Origin: an uncultured Candidatus Saccharibacteria bacterium
GTDB lineage: Bacteria > Patescibacteriota > CAZHWT01
DNA length: 64,000 nt
Direction: 5' to 3'
Assembly: GCA_964554805.1 (NCBI GenBank)
Contig: CAZKPX010000001.1
Location: 317,798-381,797 of the forward strand
Part shown: one piece after another, positions 1,907 to 25,180 of the stretch
Layout: every line of letters begins with the position of its first letter
Position numbering within the stretch: position 1 is the first letter of the stretch
Notes under the pieces: model-generated
Told to the model about the DNA's origin: nothing
Seen by the model: the letters and a program-made list of their open reading frames with translations, nothing else
Database searches by the model: none
Translations under genes and position numbers: made by a program

Positions 1907-3793
1907 ATGGAATCGCAGGTTGAAGAGGTAAAGCGGAAAACTGATATTGTGGAAGTTATTGGCAGCTATGTTCGGCTGAATCGGGCGGGGCAGACCTATA
2001 AGGGGTTGTGTCCGTTTCATGGGGAGCGGACGCCGTCTTTTATGGTGTCGCCGGATCGTGGGACATGGCGGTGTTTTGGTTGTGGCGAGCATGGCGATGT
2101 GATTTCTTTTTTGGAAAAACATGATAATTTAACCTTTATTGAAGCCTTGGAACAGTTGGCAAAGCGGGCGGGGGTGGAATTGGAACGTGACGAGAAATTT
2201 GCAGCGAAGGGGCGCAGCAAGCAGCGCTTATATGACATTTTGAATTTGTCGGCTGAGTATTATACGTATTTGCTGGTGGAGCATGATTTGGGCAAGGAAG
2301 CCCGTGAATATTTAGCTAAGAGGCAGGTGGATAGTGAGCTGATTAAGCAGTATCGGCTTGGGTTTGCCCCTGATTCATGGCAGTCATTGCAGCAGTATTT
2401 GACTAAAAAAGGTTTTGGTTTGGAGGAAATTCGTCAATCGGGCATGAGTAGTCAGAATGATGGTGGTCGGGAGTATGATCGATTTCGGAATCGGGTGATG
2501 TTTGCGGTAACTGACGGGATGGGGCGAGTGGTGGGCTTTAGTGGGCGAAGTATGGAGGCTGAACCGAAGGGGGCCAAATACTTGAATAGTCCGGATGGGC
2601 CTTTGTTTCATAAGGGGCAGCTGCTGTATGGATTGTCGGTAGCCAAGGATTCAATTCGAAAAAAAGACCGAATTGTCTTGGTGGAAGGGAATGTTGATGT
2701 GCTATCGTCAGCCCGAGTGGGTGTGGGCGAGGTAGTTGCTCCATTGGGTACGGCCTTGACTGAAGATCAAGTCAAGGTGATGAAGCGATTTAGCGGTCGG
2801 GTCTATGTGGCTTTTGACGGGGATAAGGCGGGTCAAGCTGCGACTCGGAAAGCTATTGATTTGTTGCGGCAGGCTGAGTTGGATATAAAGATTGTTCGGT
2901 TGCCGCATGGCGGTGATCCGGATGAGTGCATTTCGATTGATGCTAACAGTTGGGTGAAAGCGGTGGATGAGGCGACGGAAGTGGTTGATTTTTACTTATC
3001 GTGGGCTGGATCTCAGCATGATTTACGAACCGAAAAGGGGAAACAGGCGGCGGCAGAGGAGATTTTGCCGTTGTTTATCTTAAATAATAACAATCAGCAA
3101 GCTCAAGCTATGCTTTTTCCGAAAATTGCCAATGCTTTGCAGTTGGATGAGGCGGTGTTGAGGAGACAGGCTAGGGAGATGCTGCGCCGGGAGGCGCAGG
3201 GACGACAAGCGACGAGCGACGAGCGACGAGGCTTGGGGGGCGGGAAAACGCAGGAACGGGCGACGGGCGACGAGCGACGAGTTGTTAAAAAACTAAGTCG
3301 GCAGGAGGTGTTGGTGGAGTATTTGGTGGGATGTTGGTTGAATTTGCCGTTGGAGGAGGTGCAGGCTGATCGGTTTGGTGAGATGTTGGCTTTGTTGCCA
3401 GTTGATGCGGCGGAACATGAGGCTGAATTGGTGGCTGCGTTTCGAGAAATGGTGGCCGAAAAGGGTAGATTGTCAGTTAAAAGATGGGCAGATAGTTTGT
3501 CTGAGGAGGGTCAGGCTGAATTGGACCGATTAAGTTCGGTAGTGATAGAGTCTAGTTTGACTGACAGTGGTACAATAGGCGTTGTTAATAACAGTTCTAT
3601 AACAGTTGATCAGCGCTTAACTGAGTTGCTTGATGTGGTACGAGAGATTAAAAGGCTTTCTTTGAAAAAGCAGTTGGATACACTAAGCCGTTCACTCAAG
3701 CAAGCAGAAGTGTTGGATAAACACAAAGTTTTGGAACTTCAACAACAATTTATTGAGATAAGTGGGCAACTTTCCGCTATGGGCAGGAAGTAG
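1907..3793 (+). CDS. dnaG: DNA primase
   Basis: CHC2 zinc finger CPFHGERTPSF..CFGCGEHGD; TOPRIM LVEGNVDVLS; 628 aa. Confidence 0.9.
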   Translation: MESQVEEVKRKTDIVEVIGSYVRLNRAGQTYKGLCPFHGERTPSFMVSPDRGTWRCFGCGEHGDVISFLEKHDNLTFIEALEQLAKRAGVELERDEKFAAKGRSKQRLYDILNLSAEYYTYLLVEHDLGKEAREYLAKRQVDSELIKQYRLGFAPDSWQSLQQYLTKKGFGLEEIRQSGMSSQNDGGREYDRFRNRVMFAVTDGMGRVVGFSGRSMEAEPKGAKYLNSPDGPLFHKGQLLYGLSVAKDSIRKKDRIVLVEGNVDVLSSARVGVGEVVAPLGTALTEDQVKVMKRFSGRVYVAFDGDKAGQAATRKAIDLLRQAELDIKIVRLPHGGDPDECISIDANSWVKAVDEATEVVDFYLSWAGSQHDLRTEKGKQAAAEEILPLFILNNNNQQAQAMLFPKIANALQLDEAVLRRQAREMLRREAQGRQATSDERRGLGGGKTQERATGDERRVVKKLSRQEVLVEYLVGCWLNLPLEEVQADRFGEMLALLPVDAAEHEAELVAAFREMVAEKGRLSVKRWADSLSEEGQAELDRLSSVVIESSLTDSGTIGVVNNSSITVDQRLTELLDVVREIKRLSLKKQLDTLSRSLKQAEVLDKHKVLELQQQFIEISGQLSAMGRK

Positions 3794-8660: not shown

Positions 8661-9854
8661 ATGTTTGAATACCAAGAATTGTCACAGCACAAGCCTGGAT
8701 ATGACAGTGATGCTCAATTAATATCTAGCGATGTTGAGCTTGATCATACTCGTTATAACTCAGAAGTTGTTGATTCAGCCCGCCAATTAATAGCAGAACA
8801 GATTAATGATCCAGAGCTATCTGTGCAGCTTATGGATCGAGTGGGGGACATAGAGCAGTTTGGTGGCTGGCACGAATACGATGGAAGCACTCTGCTGGTT
8901 CGGACCGCAGAAATTATTCAGCAATGTGACAATATCACAAGACATGACGGTGCCCCAGAAATCGTCAGGAAGGCTGCAGCATCTTTGGTCAAAAGGAGCA
9001 TAGGTTTGGTTGACTCGGCAGCAAAGATTAATGAATTGCTTAAAGATTCAGATAGTAATTCTCCAGAAATTGACTTGCAAGAGATTGCTAGGGTACAGAG
9101 GGATTTTTATTATACAGTTCGCGCAATTAATCTAATACTTCAGTCAGATGAATCTATTGCAAGCGCATATGGCTACAATTCATCAGATTATATGGATCCA
9201 GAAGATTATACCCATTTGACTGCTGCTGTGGACTCTGCGCCTATGCCAGTGAACGAGGGACGGTTCTTTTCTTTTGAGGTTTGCAACCATTCTTATAACC
9301 CAGAAGGTGATTTTATTGATCTTCCGCAGGAAGACTTAAATGATATTGATGAGTTTCAACACAGGGGCAAAATCAAGCTGTTTATTAGAGAGCAAGGTAA
9401 AAATGCCAGAATTTGTTTTACCTATTTGCCTTATCAGGAATCAGCCAGCGCACACTATGAATCTGAGGTTACTCAATGGAGTGAAGGACGACAAGAGACT
9501 GTAAAGCATATTCAGCGCGGATTTAGAATTAGCATTGATCGAGATTCTCTAGGTATGTCTGTCGACGTCGCGCGTGGAGCGTGGGATGGTGTGCAATTTA
9601 AAAGGAAGGCTGATACAGGAGGCAAGGTGTTCGATCATGGCTCAGGAAGCCATGATTACAAAGCGTTCTCTGAAGATGACATCAAAGAATGGCATGACTT
9701 GGTGTTATGGGTTACTAACAGGGCTGCACAAACTACTGAAATAATGCAGACGATATTCCAGCCAGATGTTGAAACTAGCAATAGATCTTCCGGTTTTGAG
9801 GAATATTTATTAGCAACTCTACCTATGGAATATATAAATCGACCACCGAACTAA
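8661..9854 (+). CDS. hypothetical protein
   Basis: 397-aa ORF. Confidence 0.5.
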   Translation: MFEYQELSQHKPGYDSDAQLISSDVELDHTRYNSEVVDSARQLIAEQINDPELSVQLMDRVGDIEQFGGWHEYDGSTLLVRTAEIIQQCDNITRHDGAPEIVRKAAASLVKRSIGLVDSAAKINELLKDSDSNSPEIDLQEIARVQRDFYYTVRAINLILQSDESIASAYGYNSSDYMDPEDYTHLTAAVDSAPMPVNEGRFFSFEVCNHSYNPEGDFIDLPQEDLNDIDEFQHRGKIKLFIREQGKNARICFTYLPYQESASAHYESEVTQWSEGRQETVKHIQRGFRISIDRDSLGMSVDVARGAWDGVQFKRKADTGGKVFDHGSGSHDYKAFSEDDIKEWHDLVLWVTNRAAQTTEIMQTIFQPDVETSNRSSGFEEYLLATLPMEYINRPPN

Positions 9855-10711: not shown

Positions 10712-11618
10712 TAGTTTTTTGACAAAATATAAATAGAGTTTATCTGAGATAATAGGCTATTAGTCTATATCTCAGTACCCTAGGCTATTGACATAATGCT
10801 AACTATGGGCTATACTGTGTTCAGTTAAATCGATTAGCTCAGTCAGCTGATTGAGTGATTTAACAAGTACCTTTAAGTTTCTTATAAGCTATTAGTAAGG
10901 ATGAAGTACGTCCGCCAGCTGGCGGATCCCTATATGTTTCATTCTGATTAATAGTAGATATGAATAATGGTGATAACCTGGATCGCTTCGGACGACAGGA
11001 AAGCCTAAATCATTCTACTGAGGCACAGGGTCGCTCTGGCCCGGGGAAACCTGGACCAGGGGATCAGTCTTATCTCCGCCATAATCGACGCGAGACGGCC
11101 TGCTGTATCCATTATTTCCATATCAACTGCTCCACGGCAATACACCCTATCTTTCATCTTCTGATGACGAAAGTATTGCTGGTGGAGAAAGGGGACAGGT
11201 GGTCCAAAAGGAATTACTCAATTCCATATAGATTGCCTGTCCTCAAGCGCAAAATTATTATGGTTGGTAGTTGGCAGTTAGTGGTTGGCGGAGAAAGTCT
11301 CTGCTAACGGATTGCTGAAAACTACTAACGCAATCTGGCAATACCAGATTGTTTCAAGCCTTTGTCTGGTCTGCTTAACCTATCTGAGCTAGACTATCTA
11401 ACCCAATGTTATCCTGAATTTGATTCCGGATATGGGTTGAGATCCTAGTCTAATACTCTGGTTGAGCCGACCAAGCAGATGCTTGTCGGCTCTGTTTGTT
11501 GCCACATGATGGGACGGATGGAGTACACAGCTACGCTGTGTGGTTAGCGGTTGGCAGTTAGCTGTTGGCCGAGAACTGCAGGAAACGAAGAGAGACGTAC
11601 CTTTACAAATCAATAATG

Positions 11619-11713
11619 GCTGCAATATTACCCACCTCTCCGTGGTGCAGCTTCCGCCAGTTGGCGGACCAGCCTTTGGCTGGAGATGAATCCGTATTTA
11701 ACGGTAAACCAAG
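11619..11713 (+). repeat. three-hairpin structured element, b/e family copy 1
   Basis: tccgccagttggcgga hairpin, then ccagcc-ttt-ggctgg, then ccgt-attta-acgg, then taaaccaag; a homolog at 15440-15511 carries compensatory changes. Confidence 0.55.
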
Positions 11714-11737
11714 TGGTAATAGTGGAGACTTTTCGGT

Positions 11738-11844
11738 CCCCTTTAGTGGTTAAAGTGTTTTTGCTGGTCTTACGATTGTTCTCTTCGTCATTGCGAGGAG
11801 CGTAGCGACGCGGCAAGCTGTTTTGTATTAACCATTAAATGGGG
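11738..11844 (+). repeat. R3 structured repeat copy 1 (core tcgtcattgcgagRagcgtagcgacgcggcaa)
   Basis: 14-bp closing helix cccctttagtggttaa / ttaaccattaaatgggg; copies at 14329-14431 and 22101-22205. Confidence 0.6.
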
Positions 11845-11928
11845 CTGAAGGGGGAGAGTCAGAGGTCTGAGACTTGTCTCAGTGCTGATTAGCTCTGCAC
11901 CTGGGTTCGATTCCCGGCAGCTCCACAA
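11841..11928 (+). ncRNA. tmRNA-like tRNA-like domain (88 nt), lacking the mRNA-like body
   Basis: 5' ggggctg pairs with 3' cagctcc, including a G3-U70 pair; T-arm ctggg-ttcgatt-cccgg directly before the acceptor 3' strand; the middle is a simple helix plus hairpin with no tag ORF. Confidence 0.35.
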
Positions 11929-13076
11929 AGTACCCCATCGTCTATGGGGGTGGGCAGGCAGGTGCGTCGCGTCTTGCGATAGCCTCGTTTTGTCCTTCAT
12001 CCTCGAAAGGGATGAAAAAATGACTCAGGCACAGGCACAGGCACAGGCTCAGATTGTAAATCGAGCGTTGTCTTTGGTCGGCCAGGTGCCGACCGACCAT
12101 CCGGCTTCGGCTCGGCGAGCAAGGGCTCGGAGAGCCCCTGCTTGGGGCCGCCAGCAACGTGCTGGCGGAAGTCCGCGCTGCCGACAAGACAGCTAAGGCC
12201 ACCCTAACGGGTGGCAAAAAGAAGCGCAAATAGCGGTTCTGCCCGGTGAGTGACCGGGCGGAAATCAAATAGTCACTTCGAGGTGGACGTCTCGTTAACC
12301 GTATTCTGGTGTGGCCGACCACTGCTGTGCGATTTGCGCAGGAGTTAATTGGCTCCAGACTCATTCTGGAGAATCATATGGGGCTGAACCCCCTGGGAGA
12401 TTGAGGGATCTCCCCAGACAAAAATATCCTTCCTCCAGCTCGGAGCTAGGTGCGCAAGGTGTGCATCTGGAAGAGTTACAATTCTGGCCTACGTCCATTC
12501 CACGGATATGGCCTAGCGAAGGAGGGTCTGTTATGACCTAACTCCGCGGTGGTTGGGGCATGCTTCCCCAACCACCAACAACTTATAGACTGCGAGATAG
12601 ATTACCTCCACGTGGTGCAGTCTGGATAGATAATTCGAATAGATTCCTGTCTACACAGGAATGACGGATTGTTGAACTAAGTATCTAAACAGGAGAGTAT
12701 TCTTCTTCTCAATAGCATAATTCATCGGTCATCAGTGCGCGTTGGTTGTGCTGTTGAGGAGTGGAAACACTTCTCCGGTTACAGCATCTTGCGAGGGTTT
12801 ATATTCCCTCGATCTAGCTCTGCTGAGACTGTTCGTCGTTCTGCTCCAAGCCTATCATGGCTGGGTCAGGGGCGATGCATGGTCGGGCCCTCCGATATGG
12901 GTAGCGGTCTGGTTGGGGACTTTTAGTCCCTGACTAGGCCTCCCGCCTATCTGGGTTGGCTAGTCTGCCCTACAGGGGTATTAGCGGTGCAATGCCGCAG
13001 GCTAAAAATACAGACCAGTGTTCTGACTGCCACTGGGGTTCATTGCAGCCTGCAATGGATTAAACTCTGTAGTCGT

Positions 13077-13269
13077 AAATCCGTACCCTCGAACCGTCAG
13101 GAAGCGGTATTCGCCAATCTGGCGAAGTCCCCGGTTCAGCTCCTCGGACTACGATCCCCCAAAATCGTGTCCGAGGAGAACCCCTCGGCAGCATCCGCCA
13201 ACTGGCGGAGATACGCCTCCTCGTGGCGCTGCTGGATAGTCTATTGAAAGATGGATGAACTGAGTATCT
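13077..13269 (+). repeat. R1 structured repeat copy 1 (about 193 nt)
   Basis: aaatccg..ccgtcagga..cgccaatctggcg..variable hairpin..tccgccaactggcgga..agatac..GAAA-loop hairpin..gtatct; about 85% identical to 14117-14310 with compensatory substitutions. Confidence 0.65.
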
Positions 13270-13335
13270 AGGAGAAGTTTTAGCGTAAAGATTACTTCTG
13301 TCCCAATTAAGATTCAAGGTTGCTTGAGTTTTGGT

Positions 13336-13470
13336 TGGGGGAGGAGTGGTATTAAGACGCTACTTCTTTCGACCCCGTACCGCGTAAGCGGATTGAGTGA
13401 TTCTCAATAGCCTTGGTCGCTTGATTAAGGCTTTCCTGGCGGTGCAGACCGCCGCCGCCCATAGGAGGGC
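13336..13470 (+). promoter_or_regulatory. R2 conserved structured leader upstream of the ORF starting at 13474
   Basis: Shared with 20419-20547: G-run closing stem, ccgc-GNRA-gcgg hairpin (gtaa vs gtga), variable hairpin, ggcggt-gcag-accgcc hairpin just before the GGAGG RBS. Confidence 0.5.
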
Positions 13471-13473
13471 GCA

Positions 13474-13968
13474 ATGGCTATCGTGAAGACAAGCGATGTT
13501 GGTATCCGAGTCAATCAACTCTCTCTAGGGATGTGGAGAGAGTTGGGAATAGAGAAGCCTTCCAGGTTTTCTTTATGGGACTACCTGGAAGGCCTCGACA
13601 GGTCCGTCGAGGCCTTGGGCCTCAGGGGAGTGGCAGTAGCCTCAATGAGGTTCCTGCCAGACGCTGCGGTTGTCATCGTATGGGAGCTACGACTCCCGTA
13701 CGATGAAGCTAGGCGGTTCGAAAGTCTATCTGATGGGCAGAAGGAGCGATTCCTTCTGCCCTTAGACAAACCGCTTGAATTCTCGGAAAAGATTGTGAGC
13801 CTCAACACGGAGAGAAACACCCCTCCATGGGAGAGACTCACAATCTCTGGGACGGATTCGTCTCAGTCGTATCTTAGCAGGCCGACAGATCTCTTGCTTC
13901 AGTCGGAGGCGGAGGCTGCAATTGCAGCTTACCGCAGTCGGCTCGAGGAGCTGGTCTCCTCGCTGTAG
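13474..13968 (+). CDS. hypothetical protein
   Basis: 164-aa ORF; GGAGG RBS 5 nt upstream; preceded by the R2 leader. Confidence 0.5.
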   Translation: MAIVKTSDVGIRVNQLSLGMWRELGIEKPSRFSLWDYLEGLDRSVEALGLRGVAVASMRFLPDAAVVIVWELRLPYDEARRFESLSDGQKERFLLPLDKPLEFSEKIVSLNTERNTPPWERLTISGTDSSQSYLSRPTDLLLQSEAEAAIAAYRSRLEELVSSL

Positions 13969-14116
13969 GTTTTTCTAGCGGTCGCGACCGCTTAGCCCGG
14001 GGTTGACCGGGTGATCTCGAAGCCGTTTGCGTAGAGCGGCATCAACTAGTCTTCTCTACGTCCAGCGCACTGCTGCTGGGGTTAATGACAGCCTGTCATT
14101 GACTAGAAGTGCAGAC

Positions 14117-14310
14117 AAATCCGCAAACCTCTGAACCGTCAGGAGCGGTATTCGCCAATCCGGCGAAGTCCCCGGTTCAACTTCCTCAGGTTGCGACTCC
14201 TTGTCGCACCTGAGGGAGATTCCCTCGGCAGCATCCGCCAACTGGCGGAGATACGCCTCCTCGTGGCGCTGCTGGATAGTCTGTCGAAAGACAGATGAAC
14301 TAAGTATCTA
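14117..14310 (+). repeat. R1 structured repeat copy 2
   Basis: Collinear with 13077-13269. Confidence 0.65.
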
Positions 14311-14328
14311 GCATCAGAGACTTTCTGT

Positions 14329-14431
14329 CTCACTTAGTGGTTAACCTGTTTTTGTTGGTCTTACGATTGTTCTTCTCGTCATTGCGAGAAGCGTAGCGAC
14401 GCGGCAATCTAGTGTTTCGACCATTAAGTGA
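14329..14431 (+). repeat. R3 structured repeat copy 2
   Basis: Closing helix ctcacttagtggtt / gaccattaagtgag; the same core as copy 1. Confidence 0.6.
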
Positions 14432-14568
14432 GGGAGAAATCTCTCTGAAGAAAAGAATCAAAACCCTGGGGAAACTCAGGTCTCTGCCCGTCAGCAGAGG
14501 GAGTGAAGTGTAGTGGCCTGGCAGCGTGCCAAAGCCCGTACCGCTTATGCTCCGCATCCTGTGAAAGG

Positions 14569-15250
14569 GATGAACATGAACTGGCAGTTGATTTTTTCAG
14601 TGGCCTTCGTGGCCACTGTGGCGATCGCTATGATTGCCTTCGCCGGCCGAGAAATCGGCGAGGTGAAGGCGGGCGCCGCCGCCGCGGCGCGAAAGGCCGC
14701 GGCTACGGCCGCGGAGGCTACCGCCCAGAAATGGGCGGTGAAGTACCGCAACCTGGAGGTCCTTCGGGACCTCCAGGCTCTCTTCGGAAGCACCCCTGTG
14801 ACGATCTTTGGATCGTCACAGAAGGGGGGCGGTTTCACCGCCCCCGAACGACCGTCCGACCTCGACCTGATGGTCGAGGTTGACGACGAGACCTGGGCGG
14901 AGTGGGCCGCCCAGGTCTACCCGGCAGATCTCGTCGGGGCGGAAGCCCCCCCAGTTTACAACGACAACTGGGGCGGTGGCGAGACCGCTCTGGTTAGGGG
15001 GAGGACAATCACCGTTCTCCCTTACGAGACGGTCTACCCGACGCGCATTGCGCGCCGGGAGGCCGCCCAGGAGATCCTAGGCATCGAGATTGAGCCCCTC
15101 GGGCTCAATCTCGACATCTTCCTCTTCCCGCACTCGTTTGTGCGGGAAGAGATGACCATCCCGGCTTGGGATGGTGCGGAGACCGGAAGGTCTTTCCGGG
15201 AGGAGGTCCTGGCAGGAGTCAAGCTCTCTGAGCTTCAGCCTGCGGACTAA
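14569..15250 (+). CDS. nucleotidyltransferase (Pol-beta/MNT superfamily) with an N-terminal TM helix
   Basis: Motif IFGSSQKGGGFTAPERPSDLDLMVEVDD (GS-x9-SDxDL); N-terminal hydrophobic helix WQLIFSVAFVATVAIAMIAF; Ala-rich linker. Confidence 0.6.
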
Positions 15251-15439
15251 TGACCCTCAGCGCACTGCTGCGCTGGCTGACGACGCATTCGTTGGCGAAA
15301 TGAAGCAGATAGACCTTACCTCGGATCCTTCGCGACTGAGATGGTCGAACCCCGGGGAGCGTAAGCTCTCTGGGGAAACCCATGGCAGCAATTGATTCGC
15401 CTCTACGATGGCTCGCCTAGCCGAAATGCTAGTGCAGGC

Positions 15440-15511
15440 TGGCGCTGCTTCCGCCGGTTGGCGGACTGGTCTTTTGACCAGAGATGAATCCGTCTTGAAC
15501 GGTAAACCAAG
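15440..15511 (+). repeat. three-hairpin structured element, b/e family copy 2
   Basis: tccgccggttggcgga, then ctggtc-tttt-gaccag, then ccgt-cttga-acgg, then taaaccaag. Confidence 0.55.
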
Positions 15512-15661
15512 AATCAAAAATAAACGACATTGATGTCTCCAGGCTACTTGCTGGGGAACAATCAGGGGGCTTTTAACGTTGACCCCTGGTTGTTCCTTGG
15601 GCAGGGAACTAAAGCCAGCCGCGGGTGCGGTAGGCTGAACAATTGCCCTAGAGGAGGCCCT

Positions 15662-16012
15662 ATGGCCACCAAATTCATCAATCTAACCCCTCATACGATC
15701 AATGTTGTTGTTGTTGGGGAGGAGGGTGACGTTGTCGCCTCCTTCCCGGCTTCGGGACAGGAGGCTCGGGTGGCAACCACCCGGGAGCTGTCTCATAACC
15801 TCGACGCCGATGGTGTCGGGATCCCGGTCTTCAGGACCGGGTACGGGGAGATCGAGGGGCTGCCGGCCCCCGAGGCCGGCACTATCTTCGTCGTCTCTGG
15901 TCTGGTGGCTGCGGCCACCGACCGTGATGACGTCGTCTCTCCGGGCGAACTCGTCCGGAACTCCGAGGGGCAGCCGATTGGCTGCCGGGGGTTCTCCCGC
16001 CCCGCTCGATAG
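15662..16012 (+). CDS. hypothetical protein
   Basis: 117 aa from ATG 15662 with a gaggagg RBS; the longer ORF is open from 15530. Confidence 0.45.
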   Translation: MATKFINLTPHTINVVVVGEEGDVVASFPASGQEARVATTRELSHNLDADGVGIPVFRTGYGEIEGLPAPEAGTIFVVSGLVAAATDRDDVVSPGELVRNSEGQPIGCRGFSRPAR

Positions 16013-16209
16013 GGAGAGTTCGGTGGGTGTCCGAACTAAAATAACCACCCCAATTCCAGCCAGTGTGTCTGTGGCTGGGGGTTGGCTGTTGCTTGCAGCT
16101 GACGAAACAAATCTTCGGACATAGGGACCTAACCTGCTGCGGAAGCCTTTGGGTGACTAAGGCAATATCGGTTCCGGCTCCTGGGATGGTGAGATTACTC
16201 ATCGTTCTA

Positions 16210-16303
16210 GGAGACCTTCGTGGCAGCATCCGCCAACTGGCGGAGATACGCCTCCTCGTGGCGCTGCTGGATAGTCTGTTGAAAGATGGATGAACTAAGT
16301 ATC
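16210..16303 (+). repeat. R1 repeat, 3' half only
   Basis: ggcagcatccgccaactggcggagatacgcctcctcgtggcgctgctggatagtctgttgaaagatggatgaactaagtatc. Confidence 0.6.
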
Positions 16304-16658
16304 AGAAGGAAGAGTTTATTTTTGTTCTTAGCCCGTTGCTCTTAGGTGCCTAGTTGACCCTATTGGAAGATAGGGCCAATGGGTTGATTATTTAGCTGAG
16401 AGCAGCGTGGTGGGAATGAAAGAGTTGACGGCTTCTCGGGTGAGGAGCTTTTGGTGTATCTGGGGAGTGAGCAGGTATGCCGGGAGCTCCTCATTGAGGA
16501 GCGCAACCTAGGTGAATTGCAGTAAAAACTCTTTTGGGCAACCCTGCCCGATGCCGTAGGTGCTCTGGATGAAATTGAGCGCTGAATGGAAGTCAGTTAA
16601 AGACTGGCCGAGCAGGGTGGGTATTGTCGCGAGACGCCCCTGGCTCGAAGGAGTTGCT

Positions 16659-19600
16659 GTGAGCAACAATATTCTTCTTCCAATCTCCGCTTATCGGGCG
16701 GAGATTGAAGCAGGGGTGGATGGCGATTCGGTGGTGGTTGTCACCGCTGAAACGGGGACTGGGAAAAGCACGCAAGTGCCGCAGTACATGTTGGAGGCTG
16801 GGTATGATCTGGTAATCACCCAGCCGCGTCGGCTGGCCGCCCGAACAGTGGCCCAGCGAGTGGCCGAGGAAATCGGTCAGGAATTGGGCGGAATTGTTGG
16901 TTATCGGACGGCGGAGGATCGGCGAGATTCGTCGGACACCCGCTGTTTATTCGTGACCGATGGTCTTCAGCTTGTTCGCGAGCTGATGGGTCATGGGAAG
17001 CGGCAAGTTTTGATTCTGGACGAGGTCCATGAATGGAACGAGAACCTGGAAGTTCTCGTTGCCTGGGCCAAGCTCCAGATCGAAACTGGAGCTGATTTCA
17101 AGCTAGTGCTGATGAGCGCTACGCTTGAAGCCGACAAGTTGGCCGCCTATTTTGGTGGTGCGCCAGTTATCTCGGTTCCAGGCCGACTGTTTCCGGTGAC
17201 GGAGCAGAAGCCAGGAGGTTCGGTGGAAGCCGACGTTGCGGAGCTGGTTCGCCAGAGGCGCAATACACTGGTATTCCAGCCGGGCAAGGCGGAGATTGAG
17301 GCCACCTGTGCTGCTTTGCGGCAGATGCAAGTGTGGGCTGAGATTTTGCCTTTGCATGGGCAGTTGACCGCCGAGGAGCAGGCTCGCTGCTTCCGGCATT
17401 ACGGTAAACCCAAGGTGGTGGTGGCATCAAATGTGGCGCAGACCAGCGTCACAATTGACGATATCGACGCCGTTGTCGACTCCGGCATGGAGCGACGGAT
17501 TGAGTTGGTGGATGGGGTTGAGGGCTTGTACCTTAAGCCTATTTCGCTGGCTGATTCTGCGCAGCGCCGGGGTCGAGCTGGTCGGACGAAGGCAGGGATC
17601 TATATCGATCGCTGCCCGAGTGTCGACCGACCGGAGTTTCCGGTGGCCGAGATCCTGCGCAAGCGGCTCGACCAGACGGTACTCCGGTTGGCCAGTGCTG
17701 GGTTTGACATGGAAGAGCTGGAATTCTTCCATCAGCCTGACAAGGCTGACATCCACGAGGCTCGTCAGTCTCTAGTGGCTCTCGGCTGCATGACAGCGGC
17801 TGGAGAAGTCACATCGATGGGGAGACGGGTTAACAAGCTGCCGGTGTCAGTGCAGTATGCGCGGATGCTGGTGGAAGCTGAGCGGTTGGGGGTGGTGGAC
17901 GATCTCCTGACTGTGGCAGCTATCTTGGAGCAGGGCGGTATTACAGTTGCCCCCCCAAGTCGGTCTAATCTGACCCGACCTGATTGGCGCCGAATGGTGC
18001 CGCAGGAGCAGGAGTCGGATATTCTTGGTCAGCTGGTTGTCTATAAAATGGCAGCTGAGATGACCAATGACCAACTCTATCAGAGTGGGGTGGCTCTGAA
18101 GGCCTATTATCGGGCTAAGGAGATCCGCTCTCATTTGGCGAGGGCTCTGGGCGCTCGGTTCCATTCTGGTTCAACGGGTCGCCGCGAGGACATCCTCAAA
18201 GCGGTCTGTGCCGGGATGGTTGACCATCTCTACCATGGCACTGGTGGGGGATGGAAGAATGGTGACGATACTGTCCGAGAACTGGGCAGTTCGTCGCTGG
18301 TTCAGAATGCCAGTTGGTTGGTGGGTCGGCCTTTTGACCTGCAGATCAAGGCACGCTATGGGCATACCACCCTGCGCCTGATCGAGCTGGCGTCAAAGGT
18401 TGAGCCGAACTGGCTGGTCGAAGTCGCTCCGCATTTGGTGGAGCAACAGACTGGCCTGCAACCTCGCTTTGATGACCGGAAGGGGGTGGTGGTTTCGACC
18501 ACCAAGACTCTCTTTAATGGTCAAGAAGTGGGGGAAGAGGAGGTTGTGGATCGGGAGCACCCCGAAGCAGCCGATCTCTTTGCTGGCTGGCTGGCTGGGC
18601 TGAGTCAATCTCGGGCGGAGAGTCTGGGGTTGGAAATTATGGTTCGCAATCTGGCTCGCAACCAACGAGCTAAGGAGCTGAACCAGCGGGCCGGCGAGAC
18701 CCTCTTTGGGGTGGTTGAGCTGCAGGCTTGGTATCTTGCCAAGCTGGAGGGCGCTGGCAACTTTAAGGAGGTGGTGGAGAAGCAGGTGGCTGCGAAGTGC
18801 CTGCTGCCCGATCTCGACCAGGATTTGATTGATCTGGTGCTCCAAGAGCAGCCAGACTCGATTGAGTTGCTGGGCGAAGGCCTGAAAGTAGAGTATGTTG
18901 ATGGCTACGGTCATCGGCGTACTCACCCTAGAGTTCGGTTGTCGGATCAGCAGATTCAGGCGAAGGCCTGGCTTGAGCTGTCTGATGACCAGCCGGTTCG
19001 CCTGTCTGGCGGGCGAATGGTTGAAGTGGCGGTTGAAGTGGCTTATACTACTTTCTCCTCTACTGAGCCATTCCTGCTGAAGGAGCGGGTGCGCGAGTAC
19101 CTGAACCAGAAGCAGTGGGACGCCTGGCATCGACCAGAGGTCTCAGTTGAGGGGCTGGAGTCGGCAGATCAGATTCCGTTTATGACCGCTGTCTATGGAC
19201 AGTGCGTGGTGACGGGGCAGGATCTGCTGGCTTACGGTACCGTTCGGGCACGCCGGTATTGGTCCAGGATTGATCGCTGGCAGCCGGTGTGGGTTCGGTC
19301 TCTTGATGAGGCTGAACGGGTTCGATCCGAGGCAGTGGCAGCACTTGAAGAGGTGCGAGCTGAAGCTGAGGTGAAGGCTATGGAGTCCAGATTGAAGATT
19401 CTGGATGCCCATAACGGCTGGTTCTACCTTGATCGCTCGTCGGAGGCTTATAAGCGCCTTCAGGGCATAATGGTAGAAGTCCCGCCCGCTAGTCGGGAAT
19501 GGTTGATAGAGGCGGGGCGACTGGTTGAAGAGCTGGCTCCTGCCCTTGAGCAGGCCGAGCAAGATGGCTTGGCTGCTGAACAGGCAGCTAAGGCTGAGCA

Positions 19601-20090
19601 ACAGCAGATCGAAGAGAAGGCGGCTGGAATATTGGCTGCGGTCAATCCCAGTGGTCATCACAACTTTGGTTTGGCTGAGGTTCGGTTGGCGAGCCAGTTG
19701 GCCGAACAAGCGGTTCGGCTGGTGGGACAAGCCCGGGCTCAGGCGATCTTCCGAGAGGAAGCGGATGCTTCTTATCGAAGATCGCTCAAATGTCAGCGAA
19801 TCAGAGAGGCTATTCCTGGTTTGTTTGACACGGAAGTTGGGTCGCGGTTCCTCCAGATTCCGGCGCGGTATGTCACCGAATGGTGGTTGCAAGCGACGGC
19901 ATTGTGGTTGGAATCGAATACCACCACGTCGACCGAGGAGTTGCCTGCTCCTGCTCCTGCTCTGATTGAGCTGGAAGAGCAGCCGACGGTGTCAGTTTTG
20001 GCTGTCAAAGAACAGTCTGCCGAGGAGGCAGAAGAGTCTTTTGACAGTCCTATGGCGCTAGCAATGCGTCGGGCCGGGATTAAGTTTTAA
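16659..20090 (+). CDS. DEAH-box (HrpA/HrpB-like) ATP-dependent helicase with a roughly 450-aa C-terminal extension
   Basis: Walker A TGTGKSTQVPQ, DEVHE box, helicase-C and HA2-like region QRRGRAGR; GTG start at 16659 with an aaggag RBS matches the HrpB N-terminus (LPI..); the ORF is open from 16560. Confidence 0.85.
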   Translation: MSNNILLPISAYRAEIEAGVDGDSVVVVTAETGTGKSTQVPQYMLEAGYDLVITQPRRLAARTVAQRVAEEIGQELGGIVGYRTAEDRRDSSDTRCLFVTDGLQLVRELMGHGKRQVLILDEVHEWNENLEVLVAWAKLQIETGADFKLVLMSATLEADKLAAYFGGAPVISVPGRLFPVTEQKPGGSVEADVAELVRQRRNTLVFQPGKAEIEATCAALRQMQVWAEILPLHGQLTAEEQARCFRHYGKPKVVVASNVAQTSVTIDDIDAVVDSGMERRIELVDGVEGLYLKPISLADSAQRRGRAGRTKAGIYIDRCPSVDRPEFPVAEILRKRLDQTVLRLASAGFDMEELEFFHQPDKADIHEARQSLVALGCMTAAGEVTSMGRRVNKLPVSVQYARMLVEAERLGVVDDLLTVAAILEQGGITVAPPSRSNLTRPDWRRMVPQEQESDILGQLVVYKMAAEMTNDQLYQSGVALKAYYRAKEIRSHLARALGARFHSGSTGRREDILKAVCAGMVDHLYHGTGGGWKNGDDTVRELGSSSLVQNASWLVGRPFDLQIKARYGHTTLRLIELASKVEPNWLVEVAPHLVEQQTGLQPRFDDRKGVVVSTTKTLFNGQEVGEEEVVDREHPEAADLFAGWLAGLSQSRAESLGLEIMVRNLARNQRAKELNQRAGETLFGVVELQAWYLAKLEGAGNFKEVVEKQVAAKCLLPDLDQDLIDLVLQEQPDSIELLGEGLKVEYVDGYGHRRTHPRVRLSDQQIQAKAWLELSDDQPVRLSGGRMVEVAVEVAYTTFSSTEPFLLKERVREYLNQKQWDAWHRPEVSVEGLESADQIPFMTAVYGQCVVTGQDLLAYGTVRARRYWSRIDRWQPVWVRSLDEAERVRSEAVAALEEVRAEAEVKAMESRLKILDAHNGWFYLDRSSEAYKRLQGIMVEVPPASREWLIEAGRLVEELAPALEQAEQDGLAAEQAAKAEQQQIEEKAAGILAAVNPSGHHNFGLAEVRLASQLAEQAVRLVGQARAQAIFREEADASYRRSLKCQRIREAIPGLFDTEVGSRFLQIPARYVTEWWLQATALWLESNTTTSTEELPAPAPALIELEEQPTVSVLAVKEQSAEEAEESFDSPMALAMRRAGIKF

Positions 20091-20418
20091 TCTTTGTCGT
20101 GAGGCGGAGGCCTCGTATCAATACTCCAGCGGCTTGTGTTGACCGCTGACTGCCTACAGCGTGTAGGTAGTAAATTCTCAACACATCGGGCCTGTCCGTT
20201 ATTGACGGAGAACGACCCATTGGGTAGGGGGCTAAAACCCCTACCTACTTTACGGCTGCATATACATGCCTCTTCGTGGCGTAGCTAGAAATTCGTTTAT
20301 GTGACGAAGCTAAATGTATGAGAAGTGGAAGAAAGCTTACTTCTGTCTCAATCAGAGCTTGAGACTTTAGGCGTAGATTCCGGATCTAGTCCGGAATGAC
20401 GGCCTTTTGAGCTTTGTT

Positions 20419-20547
20419 TGGGGGGAGAAGTGCTATTAAGACGCTACTTCTTTCGTCCCCGTACCGCGTGAGCGGATTCAGCATCTCAATCCCCGGCCAC
20501 TTGGCTGGGGTTGTTGGCGGTGCAGACCGCCCACGCCTTTGGAGGGC
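20419..20547 (+). promoter_or_regulatory. R2 conserved structured leader copy 2
   Basis: Homolog of 13336-13470, directly upstream of the ORF starting at 20551. Confidence 0.5.
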
Positions 20548-20550
20548 AAA

Positions 20551-20994
20551 ATGATCATCTGCCCCACCATTTACTATTGTCATCCCGGGCAGGAGATACT
20601 TCTGCCTGTGGGGGCGGTCCGTCTGCAAGGGCAGGCGGATGGTTGGTGGGTGGGGGAAGATATCCCTCATCTGCCGTTTGGCCAGAGAAGGGTGAAGGGA
20701 GGGGTCTTCATTGTAGAGGAGGACCTCTCCGATCCCTCGTTCTATGTGGAGGTTGTTATCCTCCACAATGTGAATGAGGGCCTGCCTGGGGCCATCCCCG
20801 CGCTGTTGATTGGGATTGGGGAAGCAGCGCCCCTTGCTGTCCCCAGTAAGAGTGCCTATCGCACTCTGACCGCCGAGGCTACATGTCCTCACTGCGGTTG
20901 TGGTCGCGATTTTAGGCAAAGCTGGGTGGCGGTCGAAGGCTGTTATTTCTGCGATACAGCCATTCGTTCCCCGTTCAGTATGAGCCCAAGCTAG
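20551..20994 (+). CDS. hypothetical protein with a C-terminal Cys4 zinc-ribbon
   Basis: CPHCGCG..x16..CYFCD; GGAGG RBS; the overlapping minus-strand ORF 20386-20919 was rejected. Confidence 0.45.
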   Translation: MIICPTIYYCHPGQEILLPVGAVRLQGQADGWWVGEDIPHLPFGQRRVKGGVFIVEEDLSDPSFYVEVVILHNVNEGLPGAIPALLIGIGEAAPLAVPSKSAYRTLTAEATCPHCGCGRDFRQSWVAVEGCYFCDTAIRSPFSMSPS

Positions 20995-21300
20995 ACTGAA
21001 CCCCGGAGAGCTGGAGGCTCTCTGGGGAACCCAATGGCAGTATCCCCAACTGGCGGAGATACGCCTCCACGTGGCGCTGCTGGAATAGTGCTTATTGTCA
21101 GGCTGAACTAAATTCTGCAGAATAAATCTGCGAATAAATCCAAACAGGATGACATTGAGTATTAACTGAGTATCTGAGGGAGAGTTTTTTCTGTCCGCTT
21201 TAGTTTTTTGATTATGAAAATTGATGCTATGGGTACGTTGTTGCTCGGTGTCGATGGTGAGTTAAAAGATTGAAGCGGGGAGATGAATGATGGAGGCTGG

Positions 21301-21478
21301 GTTATGGCAGTGTGCTGTGGCGGCTTCTGTCGGGTATATTTGACATAAGCTGGGCTTGTGACTAGGAACCCGTTTCTGAAATTTGTCTGTGGCCTTGAGG
21401 AAGATAGGGCTGAGGGGTTATAGTGCGGTTGATGTTTTTTAACGGTTAGCCGCTATTTCGGAGACGGGTTTTTGGTAA
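21301..21478 (+). repeat. R4 direct repeat, left copy (about 178 nt)
   Basis: About 93% identical to 22267-22440. Confidence 0.7.
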
Positions 21479-21597
21479 GTAGGGGGGATTGCCGGTCCGC
21501 TTGAGGCTTTTGGGTAATGAAGCTTGAAGTGGGGTGGTATGTGAGGGCAGGGAAAGATTCTCTGCTTGGGACCTCCCAATTAGAAAGGAGGGGTGCA

Positions 21598-21789
21598 ATG
21601 CACCCAGTCTTTTTCTTGCTAGCAATAGCGGCCACGCTGGCCGCTATTGGAGCAGTCGCTTGGCTGCTCTTCGGCTTCCATCAGGACACTCGGAAGGCGC
21701 TCGAGGTCTCCGTTGAGACCCGGGTTGCCATTGCGGCGATCCTGATCGGCACGGCCGCGATTGGCTGGTGCCTGGCGGTATCGGTTTAG
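21598..21789 (+). CDS. small two-TM membrane protein (63 aa)
   Basis: MHPVFFLLAIAATLAAIGAVAWLLFG..AIAAILIGTAAIGWCLAV; followed by a perfect hairpin cgaggaaggagg..ccttccttcctcg. Confidence 0.35.
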   Translation: MHPVFFLLAIAATLAAIGAVAWLLFGFHQDTRKALEVSVETRVAIAAILIGTAAIGWCLAVSV

Positions 21790-22007
21790 CGTGGTGGTCG
21801 AGAAAACCCGCGAGGAAGGAGGTTATTACCTTCCTTCCTCGGGGGAATACATTTTATATTGGAGAAGGAGTTGGTTTTGTAAGTGAGAAGAAAGAAGAGA
21901 GATCTTGTGGAGCAACAGGCGACAAGCGACCCCGATAGATCGGGGCAGGCTCGGCGACGAGACCTGGATTTGCGAAGCAAGCAACAGTGAACCTTAATAA
22001 TCAAATA

Positions 22008-22085
22008 ATGGCTGCAATATTACCCATCTCTCCGTGGTGCAGTCTGGATAGTCTGTTGAAAGACGGATGAACTGAGTATCTGACA
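22008..22085 (+). repeat. R1-variant repeat (ggctgcaatattaccca..ccgtggtgcag..ctggatagtctgttgaaagacggatgaactgagtatct)
   Basis: Shares its 5' module with 11619-11650 and its 3' module with R1. Confidence 0.55.
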
Positions 22086-22100
22086 TCAGAGACTTTCTGT

Positions 22101-22205
22101 CTCGCTTAGTGGTTGAGCTAGTTGACGCTTGTTTATGATTGTTCTTCTTGTCATTGCGAGAAGCGTAGCGACGCGGCAATCTAGTCTATTTGACCACTGA
22201 GTGAG
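22101..22205 (+). repeat. R3 structured repeat copy 3
   Basis: Closing helix ctcgcttagtggtt / gaccactgagtgag, with G-U and A-U substitutions relative to copy 2. Confidence 0.6.
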
Positions 22206-22266
22206 GGAGAAATCTCTCTGAAGATCGGATGGCCTGTCAGTCAAGGCGGGTAGGAAGAGTGGTTGG

Positions 22267-22440
22267 GGCAGCAGTGTGCTGTGGCGGCTTCTGTCGGGTA
22301 TATTTGACATAAGCTGGGCTTGTGACTAGGAACCTGTTTCTGAAATTTGTCTGTGGCCTTGAGGAAGATAGGGCCGAAGGGCTATAGTGAGATTAACTTG
22401 TTGTTAGTCACTATTTCGGAGACGGGTTTTTGGTTGGAAT
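22267..22440 (+). repeat. R4 direct repeat, right copy
   Basis: See 21301-21478. Confidence 0.7.
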
Positions 22441-22528
22441 AGCACGGCACGGCTTTTGAAGTGAATAGTGGGTGCTTGGTTGTTGCGTTATGGTATAATA
22501 TGCTGTCACAATTGCTTGTTGCCTGGGA

Positions 22529-23050
22529 GTGCTGGGCGGTGGTTGTGATAAAGGAGAGTGTTCGGTGGTTCAGCAAGAAACTAGCCCCGTAGAGTTGGGT
22601 AAGTATGAAATTTCACCCGAGGACTTTGAAGCGCTTCGGGCGCTATTACCTGCCCCGGTGGAGACGACGGTTGTTGAGTTTCTTCGTCATCACAATATTG
22701 TCAAGTCATTCGAAGCCCACGGTATTGTCTTGTTGCCATCCAGAGCTCGCAGCGGTCCAAAAGTCTCCTTGAACGAGGATGTTGGCCTTGAGGATTTACT
22801 GACAGGTCAGTGCGTCTTATTGGGAGCGTATTTGTCGGGATGGGGCGGCCCACTACTTTGTTCGTACGCATGGCATTGGGCTGTGGCAAGAAATGGCAAC
22901 GAGACGCTTCCATTTCTGAAGGAGCAGGATGGTCCAAAATATGACCAGTGGACTGGCTACGGCGCTTTTGATCAGTTGCTGGGCTTAATGCCGAGCTGGT
23001 TGAAGCTTGACTCGGACTGGCGAATTGAGGATGGTTGGATTCGCCGATAA
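22529..23050 (+). CDS. hypothetical protein
   Basis: 173-aa ORF. Confidence 0.4.
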   Translation: MLGGGCDKGECSVVQQETSPVELGKYEISPEDFEALRALLPAPVETTVVEFLRHHNIVKSFEAHGIVLLPSRARSGPKVSLNEDVGLEDLLTGQCVLLGAYLSGWGGPLLCSYAWHWAVARNGNETLPFLKEQDGPKYDQWTGYGAFDQLLGLMPSWLKLDSDWRIEDGWIRR

Positions 23051-23156
23051 CGGAGATAGACAGTGGGGTGGAGGGAAATTCTCTCCACCCTGTTGCATTT
23101 TGCTAACAATACATCTTGTTTTTGATAGTTATTATGAGTAAGCTTGGCTATAAGAG

Positions 23157-24637: not shown

Positions 24638-25180
24638 TTGAAAATGGTTGTCTATGCTATTTACAATCAGAAGCATGATAAGATTTATATCGGTCAGACC
24701 GAAGATCTTGATTTGCGTCTCGACCTGCACAATAGTAAAGACTTCATTAAAAGCTACACTGCACGATTTGATGGCGTATGGAAGTTAATTTACCAAGAAG
24801 CAGTTGGTAATCGAGTAGAAGCTCTAACTCGCGAAAAGCAGCTTAAATCTTATCGCGGCAGACAATTCATAAAATCTTATATTCCTCGGTATCCGCCAGC
24901 TGGCGGGAGGAAGCTGCCACTCATAACAATGTGGTATGTCTACTGCCTATATAATTATGATAATGATAAGATTTATATTGGTTATACGGGCGATTTTGAC
25001 AGGCGCATTATTGAACACAATCTCAAGAAAGATAAAAGTTCGTATACTGCAAGGTTCGACGGTGAGTGGGTTTTGATTTATAAGGAAGAAGTCTCCAACA
25101 AATCAGAAGCTGCAAAACGTGAAAAGTCTTTAAAGTCGTTCAGGGGGCGTGAGTATTTACAATCTTATATTCCTCGGTAG
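24638..25180 (+). CDS. tandem double GIY-YIG nuclease (two YhbQ/UPF0213-like modules fused in one ORF)
   Basis: Module 1 VYAIYNQKHDKIYIGQTEDLDLRLDLHNS..SYTARFDGVWKLIY; module 2 VYCLYNYDNDKIYIGYTGDFDRRIIEHN..SYTARFDGEWVLIY; each ends ..SYIPR encoded by aatcttatattcctcggta; the stop codon overlaps the tRNA-Asn 5' end. Confidence 0.7.
   Translation: MKMVVYAIYNQKHDKIYIGQTEDLDLRLDLHNSKDFIKSYTARFDGVWKLIYQEAVGNRVEALTREKQLKSYRGRQFIKSYIPRYPPAGGRKLPLITMWYVYCLYNYDNDKIYIGYTGDFDRRIIEHNLKKDKSSYTARFDGEWVLIYKEEVSNKSEAAKREKSLKSFRGREYLQSYIPR

Follow-up and report, generated by a model that had tools for sequence, protein, structure and literature searches.

The structured elements E1 (positions 11619-11713) and E2 (15440-15511) lie on the + strand of a 64,000-nt stretch of DNA from an uncultured Candidatus Saccharibacteria bacterium, which was analysed at its full length and is referred to here as the window. 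In a reading based on the sequence only, the two had been taken for free-standing three-hairpin units. Our analysis indicates that they are instead the 3' two-thirds of a larger nested double pseudoknot resembling the hepatitis delta virus (HDV) ribozyme. It is probable (about 0.7) that two HDV-like self-cleaving ribozymes, R1 and R5, contain E1 and E2 as their 3' portions and cut an operon transcript together with their sister copies. That both derive from, and fold like, HDV-like ribozymes appears very likely from sequence and pairing; that both still cleave is what we infer with less assurance, the odds leaning only slightly towards retained activity.

Re-reading of the sequence located both elements and their hairpins (hp1, hp2 and hp3) exactly where they had been described:

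11653-11668, + strand: E1 hp1, TCCGCCAGTTGGCGGA, a 16-nt near-palindrome directly after P1' in R1
11669-11683, + strand: E1 hp2, CCAGCC-TTT-GGCTGG, 6-bp stem with three pairs compensatorily changed relative to E2
11692-11704, + strand: E1 hp3, CCGT-ATTTA-ACGG, followed by TAAACCAAG at 11705-11713
15450-15465, + strand: E2 hp1, TCCGCCGGTTGGCGGA
15466-15481, + strand: E2 hp2, CTGGTC-TTTT-GACCAG
15490-15502, + strand: E2 hp3, CCGT-CTTGA-ACGG, followed by TAAACCAAG at 15503-15511

The distance of about 150 nt between E2 and the open reading frame (ORF) at 15662 was likewise confirmed, the ATG at 15662 lying 145-151 nt downstream. The 72-nt modules of E1 and E2 were 83% identical (11 substitutions and one indel), and every difference fell into a loop or was compensated. 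Two of them, T/C in P3' ('tggTgc') and A/T in P1' ('gcAgct'), seemed uncompensated because their partners reside in the P3 and P1 strands upstream of the element as originally described. Hairpin 2 had been reported as fully different in sequence while retaining a perfect 6-bp stem; the perfect stem was found in both elements, but only three of the six base pairs differed, all by double compensatory changes from E1 to E2 (C-G to U-A, A-U to G-C and C-G to U-A), and the loop of E2 contained one extra T. The compensatory substitutions in hairpin 2 are real, and they support a family of structured RNAs in which pairing is selected. When 13 substitutions were placed at random in a simulation, all 34 proposed base pairs of R1 were preserved in 7e-5 of the trials. 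A local inversion, which had been named as a possible source of the hp2 difference, was excluded by direct comparison, as the reverse complement of E1 hp2 reads CCAGCCAAAGGCTGG and not CTGGTCTTTTGACCAG. Small ORFs running over the elements (11565-11753 on the + strand, 11628-11816 and 15257-15517 on the - strand) were treated as spurious, because the substitutions follow compensatory pairing and not codons, and because the real genes in this region are all on the + strand.

The remaining parts of the proposed ribozymes were identified on both sides of the elements. Upstream of hairpin 1, at a distance of 35 nt in E1 and 66 nt in E2, lie the 5' strands of P1, P2 and P3 with its loop L3, and the P2' strand (6-7 nt) follows directly after 'taaaccaag'. 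All helices (P) can form, in the strand order P1, P2, P3-L3-P3', P1', P1.1, P4, J4/2 (J, joining segment) and P2':

11618..11721, + strand: R1, containing E1; complete HDV-like fold, predicted cleavage 5' of G11618
11618..11623, + strand: R1 P1, GGCTGC, pairing with GCAGCT at 11647-11652 including a G1-U wobble (G11618-U11652)
11626..11632, + strand: R1 P2 5' strand, TATTACC, perfect complement of GGTAATA at 11715-11721
11634..11646, + strand: R1 P3, ACC/GGT around L3 TCTCCGT; matches the P3/L3 core expression given below
11684..11685, + strand: AG, proposed 3' strand of R1 P1.1, pairing with C11638-U11639 of L3
11692..11704, + strand: hp3, assigned as R1 P4, 4 bp; directly before J4/2 as in the canonical copies, in agreement with MAFFT
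11705..11714, + strand: R1 J4/2, TAAACCAAGT, predicted catalytic C11709; aligns with TGAAC-TAA of the canonical copies
15350..15375, + strand: 11-bp GC-rich hairpin, 8 nt upstream of the predicted R5 cleavage site; a homologue precedes R8 (21003-21027)
15384..15517, + strand: R5, containing E2; complete HDV-like fold, predicted cleavage 5' of G15384
15384..15389, + strand: R5 P1, GGCAGC, pairing with GCTGCT at 15444-15449 (G15384-U15449 wobble)
15392..15398, + strand: R5 P2 5' strand, TTGATTC, perfect complement of GAATCAA at 15511-15517
15399..15412, + strand: R5 P3, GCC/GGC around L3 TCTACGAT; L3 nearly that of drz-Fpra-1
15413..15443, + strand: extra hairpin-forming insert of 31 nt between P3' and P1', in R5 only
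15482-15483, + strand: AG, proposed 3' strand of R5 P1.1, followed by the J1.1/4 linker ATGAAT and by hp3 (15490-15502), assigned as R5 P4
within 15482..15510, + strand: R5 J4/2, TAAACCAA, predicted catalytic C15507, 3 nt before P2'

The sequences of P1, P2 and P3 differ between E1 and E2, each being matched by its own partner strand. Both copies have a G at position +1 that closes P1 as a G-U wobble, a 3-bp P3 and a pyrimidine-rich L3 of 7-8 nt (UCUCCGU in R1, UCUACGAU in R5). The putative catalytic C is followed by CAA and P2' in E2 (C15507) and by CAAGT and P2' in E1 (C11709); in the canonical copies and in the Rfam family RF02682, the aligned counterpart is C-UAA. Pseudoknot-free minimum free energy folding returned P1, P3, hp1, hp2 and hp3 for R1, and P2 (7 bp), P3, hp1 and hp2 for R5; such partial sets of helices are just what a double pseudoknot should give in folding of this kind.

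Hairpin 3 was assigned to P4 and 'taaaccaag' to J4/2 because hp3 abuts TAAAC-CAA, which is aligned with TGAAC-TAA of the canonical copies; a structure-blind MAFFT alignment also placed TAAACCAAG on TGAACTAAG of these copies. The canonical copies carry GG or AG directly after P1', whereas in R1 and R5 an AG occurs only after hairpin 2 (AG-ATGAA-hp3). Position 3 of L3 covaries with P1.1, such that copies with UCC have GG, and R1, R5 and R7 have UCU and AG. As the AG after hp2 takes part in this covariation, our preferred model places hp1 and hp2 as a two-hairpin peripheral domain of 33-34 nt between P1' and P1.1. To our knowledge, no domain of this kind has been described at that position.

R1 and R5 belong to a larger family. 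In a repeat search, modular repeats proved to be abundant throughout the region between about 10.7 and 25.3 kb. The sequence just 5' of E1 (aatGGCTGCAATATTACCCAYCTCTCCGTGGTGCAG) recurs at 22005, there with a different 3' module, and a 100-nt repeat family at 13169, 14209, 16204 and 21017 contains a TCCGCC-N4-GGCGGA hairpin. With the Rfam match of R7 as a guide, every repeat copy could be parsed as an HDV-like ribozyme, resulting in nine copies from 11.6 to 22.1 kb; each is located between two genes, and the + strand carries all of them. Their shared plan comprises P1 (GGCWGC), a short or hairpin-bearing J1/2, P2, P3 (NCC/GGN), L3 (UCYNCG(A)U), P1', P1.1, P4, J4/2 (..AAC-YRA) and P2'. Besides R1 and R5 these are:

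12588..12687, + strand: R2, canonical HDV-like, long P4; found by the strict descriptor
13187..13269, + strand: R3, canonical, hp1 in J1/2; found by the strict descriptor
14227..14309, + strand: R4, canonical, hp1 in J1/2; found by the strict descriptor
16222..16303, + strand: R6, canonical, hp1 in J1/2, 257 nt upstream of the helicase gene; found by the strict descriptor
20254..20321, + strand: R7, compact and canonical, 164 nt past the stop codon of the helicase gene; found by the strict descriptor and Rfam
21036..21176, + strand: R8, canonical core, decayed hp1 in J1/2, extended P4/J4/2 region; found by the strict descriptor
22010..22082, + strand: R9, R1-like 5' half and R3-like 3' half, weak P2 (4 bp)

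R7 matched the whole Rfam model HDV-F-prausnitzii at 20255-20321 at a relaxed threshold, with 35.1 bits (gathering score 44) and an E value of 0.002 over 14.8 kb. R9, with its weak P2, is probably a recombinant or impaired copy.

The covariation check that had been proposed was carried out on 41 columns of hand-extracted core segments from eight distinct copies, and P1, P2, P3 and P1.1 were found to covary among them. In this alignment, 99.2% of the cells paired, a figure that is biased because the segments were selected in view of the fold, and both sides had changed in 9 of 16 pairs; covarying pairs occurred throughout P2 (5/5), at position 4 of P1 (A-U or U-A), in P3 and in P1.1 (C-G or U-A). 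None of 500 shuffles reached any of the measures, and slid controls paired in 19-48% of the cells. The diversity of P2, represented by five different helices, is free of the segment-choice bias. The P3/L3 core expression CCTC[CT][ACT]CGA?TGG gave eight matches at 11635-21064 (9.4 kb), all on the + strand and at the predicted position, as opposed to two in 1.55 Mb of related loci, both in coding sequence; thus, at the level of this core, no members of the window family were found in the related loci. A strict canonical descriptor recovered R2, R3, R4, R6, R7 and R8, with three chance matches in 1.65 Mb of other DNA and one in shuffles. It missed R1 and R5 only because of their insertions, as adjacency of P1.1 is required, and R9 because of its weak P2. 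A general HDV descriptor was too permissive (166 + strand matches), and a relaxed descriptor allowing a long J3/1 was non-specific (118 matches versus about 45 in shuffles); neither of the two can alone prove E2.

Additional support came from the equivalent spacers in relatives. The gene pair flanking E2 is conserved in locus L098, which carries homologues of ORF 14570 (55%) and ORF 15662 (65%, the closest). The spacer between them was not alignable with the window and contained a type III hammerhead ribozyme at L098:554-608 (Rfam 42.4 bits, E 2e-6), of the sequence CUGUC followed by GGCAGA..UCUGCC-CUGAUGA-GUC..GAC-GAAA-CAG. With a hammerhead descriptor, 80 Patescibacteria helicase loci (1.40 Mb) yielded 21 type III hammerheads on the strand of the helicase and 3 on the other, compared to none in five shuffles of these loci. 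One match, L019:9494-9549, also passed the Rfam gathering score. Hammerheads were located in the spacers directly up- and downstream of the helicase, corresponding to the positions of R6 and R7, in L019, L032, L048, L091 and in L110, the closest helicase relative (63%). The hammerheads in gene spacers around the helicase included:

L019: hammerheads at 9494-9549 and 14317
L032: hammerheads at 9827 and 13775
L048: hammerheads at 8613 and 12906
L091: hammerheads at 7964, 9830 and 13561
L110: hammerheads at about 1550 and about 5486
L016: hammerheads at 7709, 8367 and 14678

Neither the Rfam scan nor the descriptor detected a hammerhead in the window. Since hammerheads and HDV-like ribozymes occupy the same spacers, a self-cleaving ribozyme appears to be the conserved feature, with the class exchanged. 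The hammerhead-bearing helicase neighbourhood of many Patescibacteria appears to be a conserved 'ribozyme-punctuated' locus. Our literature search retrieved no paper linking hammerhead ribozymes with Patescibacteria or the candidate phyla radiation, and none pairing HDV-like ribozymes with them. A riboswitch or other cis-regulatory leader of ORF 15662 was also considered and rejected, as the L098 orthologue (65%) has the non-alignable spacer with a hammerhead in place of E2; in the window scan, no Rfam cis-regulatory match was present upstream of ORF 15662. In the Parcubacteria relative L091, an Rfam DUF805b RNA motif (L091:13270-13304, 49.7 bits, gathering score 35.6) immediately follows the stop codon of the helicase gene, with a hammerhead about 260 nt further on.

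Several observations weigh against E1 and E2 being ribozymes. Neither gave an Rfam match, whether to RF00094, RF02682 or a related model, at the gathering score or at E<=5, and even their sister R7 scored below gathering (35.1 vs 44 bits). The P1.1 nucleotides of E1 and E2 are not adjacent to P1' but separated from it by hp1 and hp2, and a two-hairpin domain at the P1/P1.1 junction, opposite the active site, could disturb stacking; we know of no active ribozyme with such an insertion. In addition, E2 has the 31-nt insert between P3' and P1', the catalytic C of E1 lies 5 nt and not 3 nt from P2', P4 comprises just 4 bp in both elements, and the segments of the core alignment were selected manually with the proposed structure as a guide. 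Further copies of the E type were absent: only two were found in everything searched, both within the nine-copy family, and none in viral or metagenome collections. Within the window, hp2-type hairpins and hp3 joined to TAAACCAAG occurred only in E1 and E2. Exact scans with the E-type 3' module gave no match in IMG/VR viral contigs or Joint Genome Institute (JGI) metagenomes, and the ten matches of an hp1-anchored scan of viral contigs were all chance coding sequence. The same E2 sequence was present in a second sequencing run (L097). A canonical-core scan identified nine metagenome contigs (L101-L109) with one HDV-like ribozyme each (GGCAGC...CCUCCUCGUGGUGCUGCCUGGAUAG...GAGAUGAACUAG), which lack hp1 and the E module and lie in a context unrelated to the window. 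Finally, the helices may have to be assigned differently, with hp2 as the ancestral P4 and hp3 inserted into J4/2. In favour of this, hp2 together with AGATGAA resembles the P4 3' strand and J4/2 (GACAGATGAAC) of R4; however, the covariation of L3 position 3 with the AG after hp2 favours P1.1 at that place.

The explanation that competes best with active ribozymes, and that we nevertheless regard as unlikely, is that E1 and E2 are decayed HDV-like ribozymes, inactivated by insertion of palindromic hairpins and left as structured RNA or spacer filler. The insertions affect sites at which known HDV-like ribozymes do not vary, E1 and E2 lack Rfam matches, and R9 in the same array resembles an impaired recombinant. 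Decay is also suggested by hp1 itself, a dispersed, genome-specific palindrome that occurs in both orientations and in unrelated contexts including tRNA-Asn-derived fragments. The TCCGCC-N4-GGCGGA hairpin had 11 copies in the window versus 0.1 expected, and its archetype is a perfect 16-bp palindrome, TCCGCCAGCTGGCGGA. The loops read AGCT, AGTT/AACT or GGTT, both orientations being represented (AACT in R3, R4 and R6; AGTT in E1), and inside ribozymes the hairpin occupies two different positions, J1/2 or directly after P1'. Besides these copies, hp1 was observed at 10911, 24612, 24892, 44599 and 48979, and the 5' fragments of tRNA-Asn at 24600 and 24892 have it in place of their D-loop or D-arm. 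It was absent from the 80 related helicase loci and, among the genomes compared, confined to that of the window. This distribution suggests a small mobile or convertible hairpin cassette. Against decay, the pairing of P1, P2, P3 and P1.1 is perfect in both elements through different sequences, and the catalytic C and the L3 motif are kept. All 12 differences between the 3' modules are neutral to structure, which is unexpected for relics, and hp2 itself shows three compensatory pairs. Moreover, a ribozyme is evidently selected at the position of E2, where the relative has a hammerhead.

It is far less probable that the hairpins serve mainly as protein- or DNA-recognition sites, for instance of the TrmB-like regulator or the HrpA-like helicase encoded nearby, or as a terminator or attenuator before ORF 15662, with the resemblance to ribozymes being secondary. 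An hp1 copy is indeed placed between the divergent TrmB promoter and ORF 10960, and a perfect 16-bp palindromic archetype would suit a recognition site. However, the stem sequence of hp2 is free to vary, pointing to pairing rather than sequence recognition, and the long-range complementarity of P1 and P2 as well as the L3 and J4/2 shared with canonical ribozymes would be left unexplained. With respect to termination, one of the functions that had been suggested for the elements, a consensus scan flagged E2 hp1 as terminator-like, but only because the hp2 loop supplies the T's. E1 lacks a U-run, no U-run follows hp3, and neither element fits an intrinsic terminator. Of the three functions suggested, a processing site came closest, although the predicted cuts are 5' of G11618 and G15384 and not at the hairpins. 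Hardly credible is a purely DNA-level repeat, such as a miniature inverted-repeat transposable element, a repetitive extragenic palindrome or an attC-like cassette boundary with the hairpins as recombination sites and no role as RNA: copies do lie between consecutive short ORFs as in cassette arrays, and the G+C content is 54-59% in the 12-20 kb segment versus 44-49% elsewhere, but all nine copies are on one strand, no integrase or transposase gene, terminal inverted repeats or target duplications were found nearby, RNA pairing is conserved with G-U on the + strand tolerated only in P1 (G1-U), and bona fide hammerheads sit at the same sites in relatives.

If R1, R5 and their sisters are self-cleaving ribozymes, they would punctuate a chromosomal operon. 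The window encodes DnaG, RpoD, FtsH, PolA and glycosyltransferases; a phage origin was rejected, as there was no megablast match and the genes are those of a chromosome. The + strand carries nearly all genes and has, over positions 1-64000, a very strong and uniform GC skew, (G-C)/(G+C), of 0.2-0.5. A 1176-aa DEAH/HrpA-like helicase with relatives in Patescibacteria is encoded at 16560-20090, and the order of large ORF, TrmB-like regulator (- strand), small ORFs and helicase is syntenic in L013 and L016. Homology of the helicase and this synteny speak for an origin in Patescibacteria, and a cyanobacterial genome was rejected on these grounds. Two signals may delimit the unit, with no comparable signal detected between them in the consensus scan:

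10788..10816, + strand: strong sigma-70-like promoter, TTGACA-17-TATACT, likely start of the ribozyme-punctuated unit
23061..23095, + strand: strong terminator-like hairpin of 16 bp, likely end of the unit

Every ribozyme lies in a spacer between genes, with the next start codon 145-260 nt downstream, and for most of them a stable GC-rich hairpin is found 8-14 nt ahead of the predicted cleavage site. From this arrangement we infer that one + strand transcript of about 12 kb (10788 to 23061) would cleave itself at nine sites during synthesis, yielding single-gene RNAs. The upstream piece would end in the hairpin and a short tail carrying a 2',3'-cyclic phosphate, whereby the hairpin at 15350-15375 would become the 3' end of the mRNA upstream of R5, and the downstream mRNA would start with a 5'-OH and a compactly folded ribozyme. 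Both ends should be poor substrates for the usual entry routes of decay. In R1 and R5, hp1 and hp2 could stabilise the fold, slow cleavage or make it conditional.

Several features of the neighbourhood deserve mention. The ORF at 15662-16012 (+ strand) after E2 gave a match to the PADLOC family Unk_01, 'unknown small protein, sometimes fused to CARF' (E 1.5e-22), and a protein with a weak Cas_csx3 domain is encoded upstream of the helicase in two relatives (L015 and L111); these neighbours hint at a connection with defence based on cyclic oligonucleotides or on RNA. A 51% homologue of ORF 15662 was found among about 25 consecutive small + strand ORFs of a JGI contig (L099:1-11939 and L100), in which each ORF follows a spacer of about 250 nt containing a repeated TTGACA-N17-TATAAT-like promoter and a Shine-Dalgarno sequence, as well as 65-nt inverted-repeat elements (TCAGGTTGCAA...TTGCAACCTGA). 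Just downstream of R1 and a D4 repeat, 11841-11928 (+ strand) encodes an 88-nt transfer-messenger RNA (tmRNA)-like RNA with the tRNA-like domain only and no mRNA-like part. It has the acceptor stem GGGGCUG/CAGCUCC with a G3-U pair plus a T-arm, scored 42.8 bits with Rfam tmRNA (gathering score 47, E 2e-14) and was not called by ARAGORN. Three further repeat families without an Rfam match lie between ribozyme and next start codon:

11731-11819, 14322-14410 and 22094-22182: repeat family 1, with a covarying hairpin (CUCUUCG..CGAGGAG vs UUCUCG..CGAGAA) and the motif GTCATTGCGAGRAGCGTAGCGACGCGGCAA
13337-13397 and 20421-20481: repeat family 2
21307-21430 and 22271-22394: repeat family 3

Downstream of the unit, at 24638-25245 (+ strand), two tandem GIY-YIG ORFs each end inside a 5' part copy of tRNA-Asn(GUU), the last copy being the intact tRNA at 25171-25245; this looks like a GIY-YIG element duplicated next to a tRNA gene. 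ORF 44781-47753 encodes a 990-aa protein with an array of 12-/24-nt repeats at 45816-46659 (+ strand) that specifies a Pro/Thr/Glu-rich tract (TEEPTEAP...), and short runs of the heptamer GCGACGA/GCGACRR occur at 3186-3281, 34132-34194, 35444-35489, 55128-55190 and 57078-57123.

The role of self-cleaving ribozymes in bacteria is a long-standing question, for which this locus provides a concrete system. That one class replaces another while the positions stay fixed is an argument that selection acts on RNA cleavage as such, by which the operon would be punctuated and defined 5'-OH and 2',3'-cyclic-phosphate ends generated. The conserved link to the HrpA-like helicase and the CARF-associated small protein is a hint that the locus functions in RNA metabolism or in defence. 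A more far-reaching interpretation, which we put forward tentatively, is that E1 and E2 are active members of an undescribed HDV-like architecture with the two-hairpin domain at the P1/P1.1 junction and, in E2, a third hairpin at the P3/P1 junction, that their cleavage may be conditional, e.g., through an hp1-binding factor or the adjacent HrpA-like RNA helicase, and that unrelated ribozyme classes (type III hammerhead and HDV-like) are interchangeable at set intergenic sites of Patescibacteria-wide punctuated operons. If true, the E-type copies would widen the known tolerance of the HDV-like fold to insertions next to the active-site stack.

The type III hammerheads of Patescibacteria share position and strand with the window ribozymes and presumably do the same job, but are unrelated to them in fold and catalytic core. 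Hammerhead and twister ribozymes are reported to form clusters near genes of unknown function (Perreault et al. 2011; Roth et al. 2014; Weinberg et al. 2015). The dispersed hairpin hp1 resembles the small dispersed repeat (SDR) elements of Nostoc, which according to Elhai et al. 2008 are said to be very small dispersed palindromic repeats inserting into structured RNA genes: hp1 is 16 nt long, palindromic and dispersed (11 copies in 64 kb), has loops in both orientations and occurs inside ribozymes and tRNA-derived sequence. It differs from these elements in lineage and sequence, and is at most a candidate mobile element.

Among HDV-like ribozymes, the closest to E1 and E2 is drz-Fpra-1 of Faecalibacterium prausnitzii (RF02682), which they resemble in strand order, the nested double pseudoknot, the G1-U wobble, the GC-rich P3 of 3 bp and a proposed P1.1 of AG with CU of L3 (UCU/AG also in R7). 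L3 reads UCUACG(A)U in E2 and UCUaCGU in the RF02682 consensus, and J4/2 with C-Y-A-A and subsequent P2' is common to both. In contrast to drz-Fpra-1, E1 and E2 carry the 33-34 nt two-hairpin domain, E2 in addition the 31-nt hairpin, and neither is detected by the Rfam model. In the large HDV-like ribozymes of the drz-Agam-2 type, a helix in J1/2, P1.2, 'pinches' P1 and P2 and accelerates cleavage (Webb et al. 2016, PMC4908430). The hp1 helix of R3, R4, R6 and R8 is likewise positioned exactly in J1/2, whereas J1/2 of E1 and E2 comprises just 2 nt and hp1, with its loop oppositely oriented, flanks P1 on its opposite side, after P1'. Bacterial genomes are reported to contain few HDV-like ribozymes, with only 12 theta or minimal matches (PMC10879173), and unlike the known rare and isolated bacterial examples, the window has nine copies in tandem gene spacers of one Patescibacteria operon. 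The theta ribozymes (PMC10879173) are also prokaryote-associated and HDV-like and cut at their own 5' edge to define RNA ends; however, they lack P4 and are located directly 3' of tRNAs in Caudoviricetes, whereas the window copies possess P4, have protein-coding neighbours and are chromosomal.

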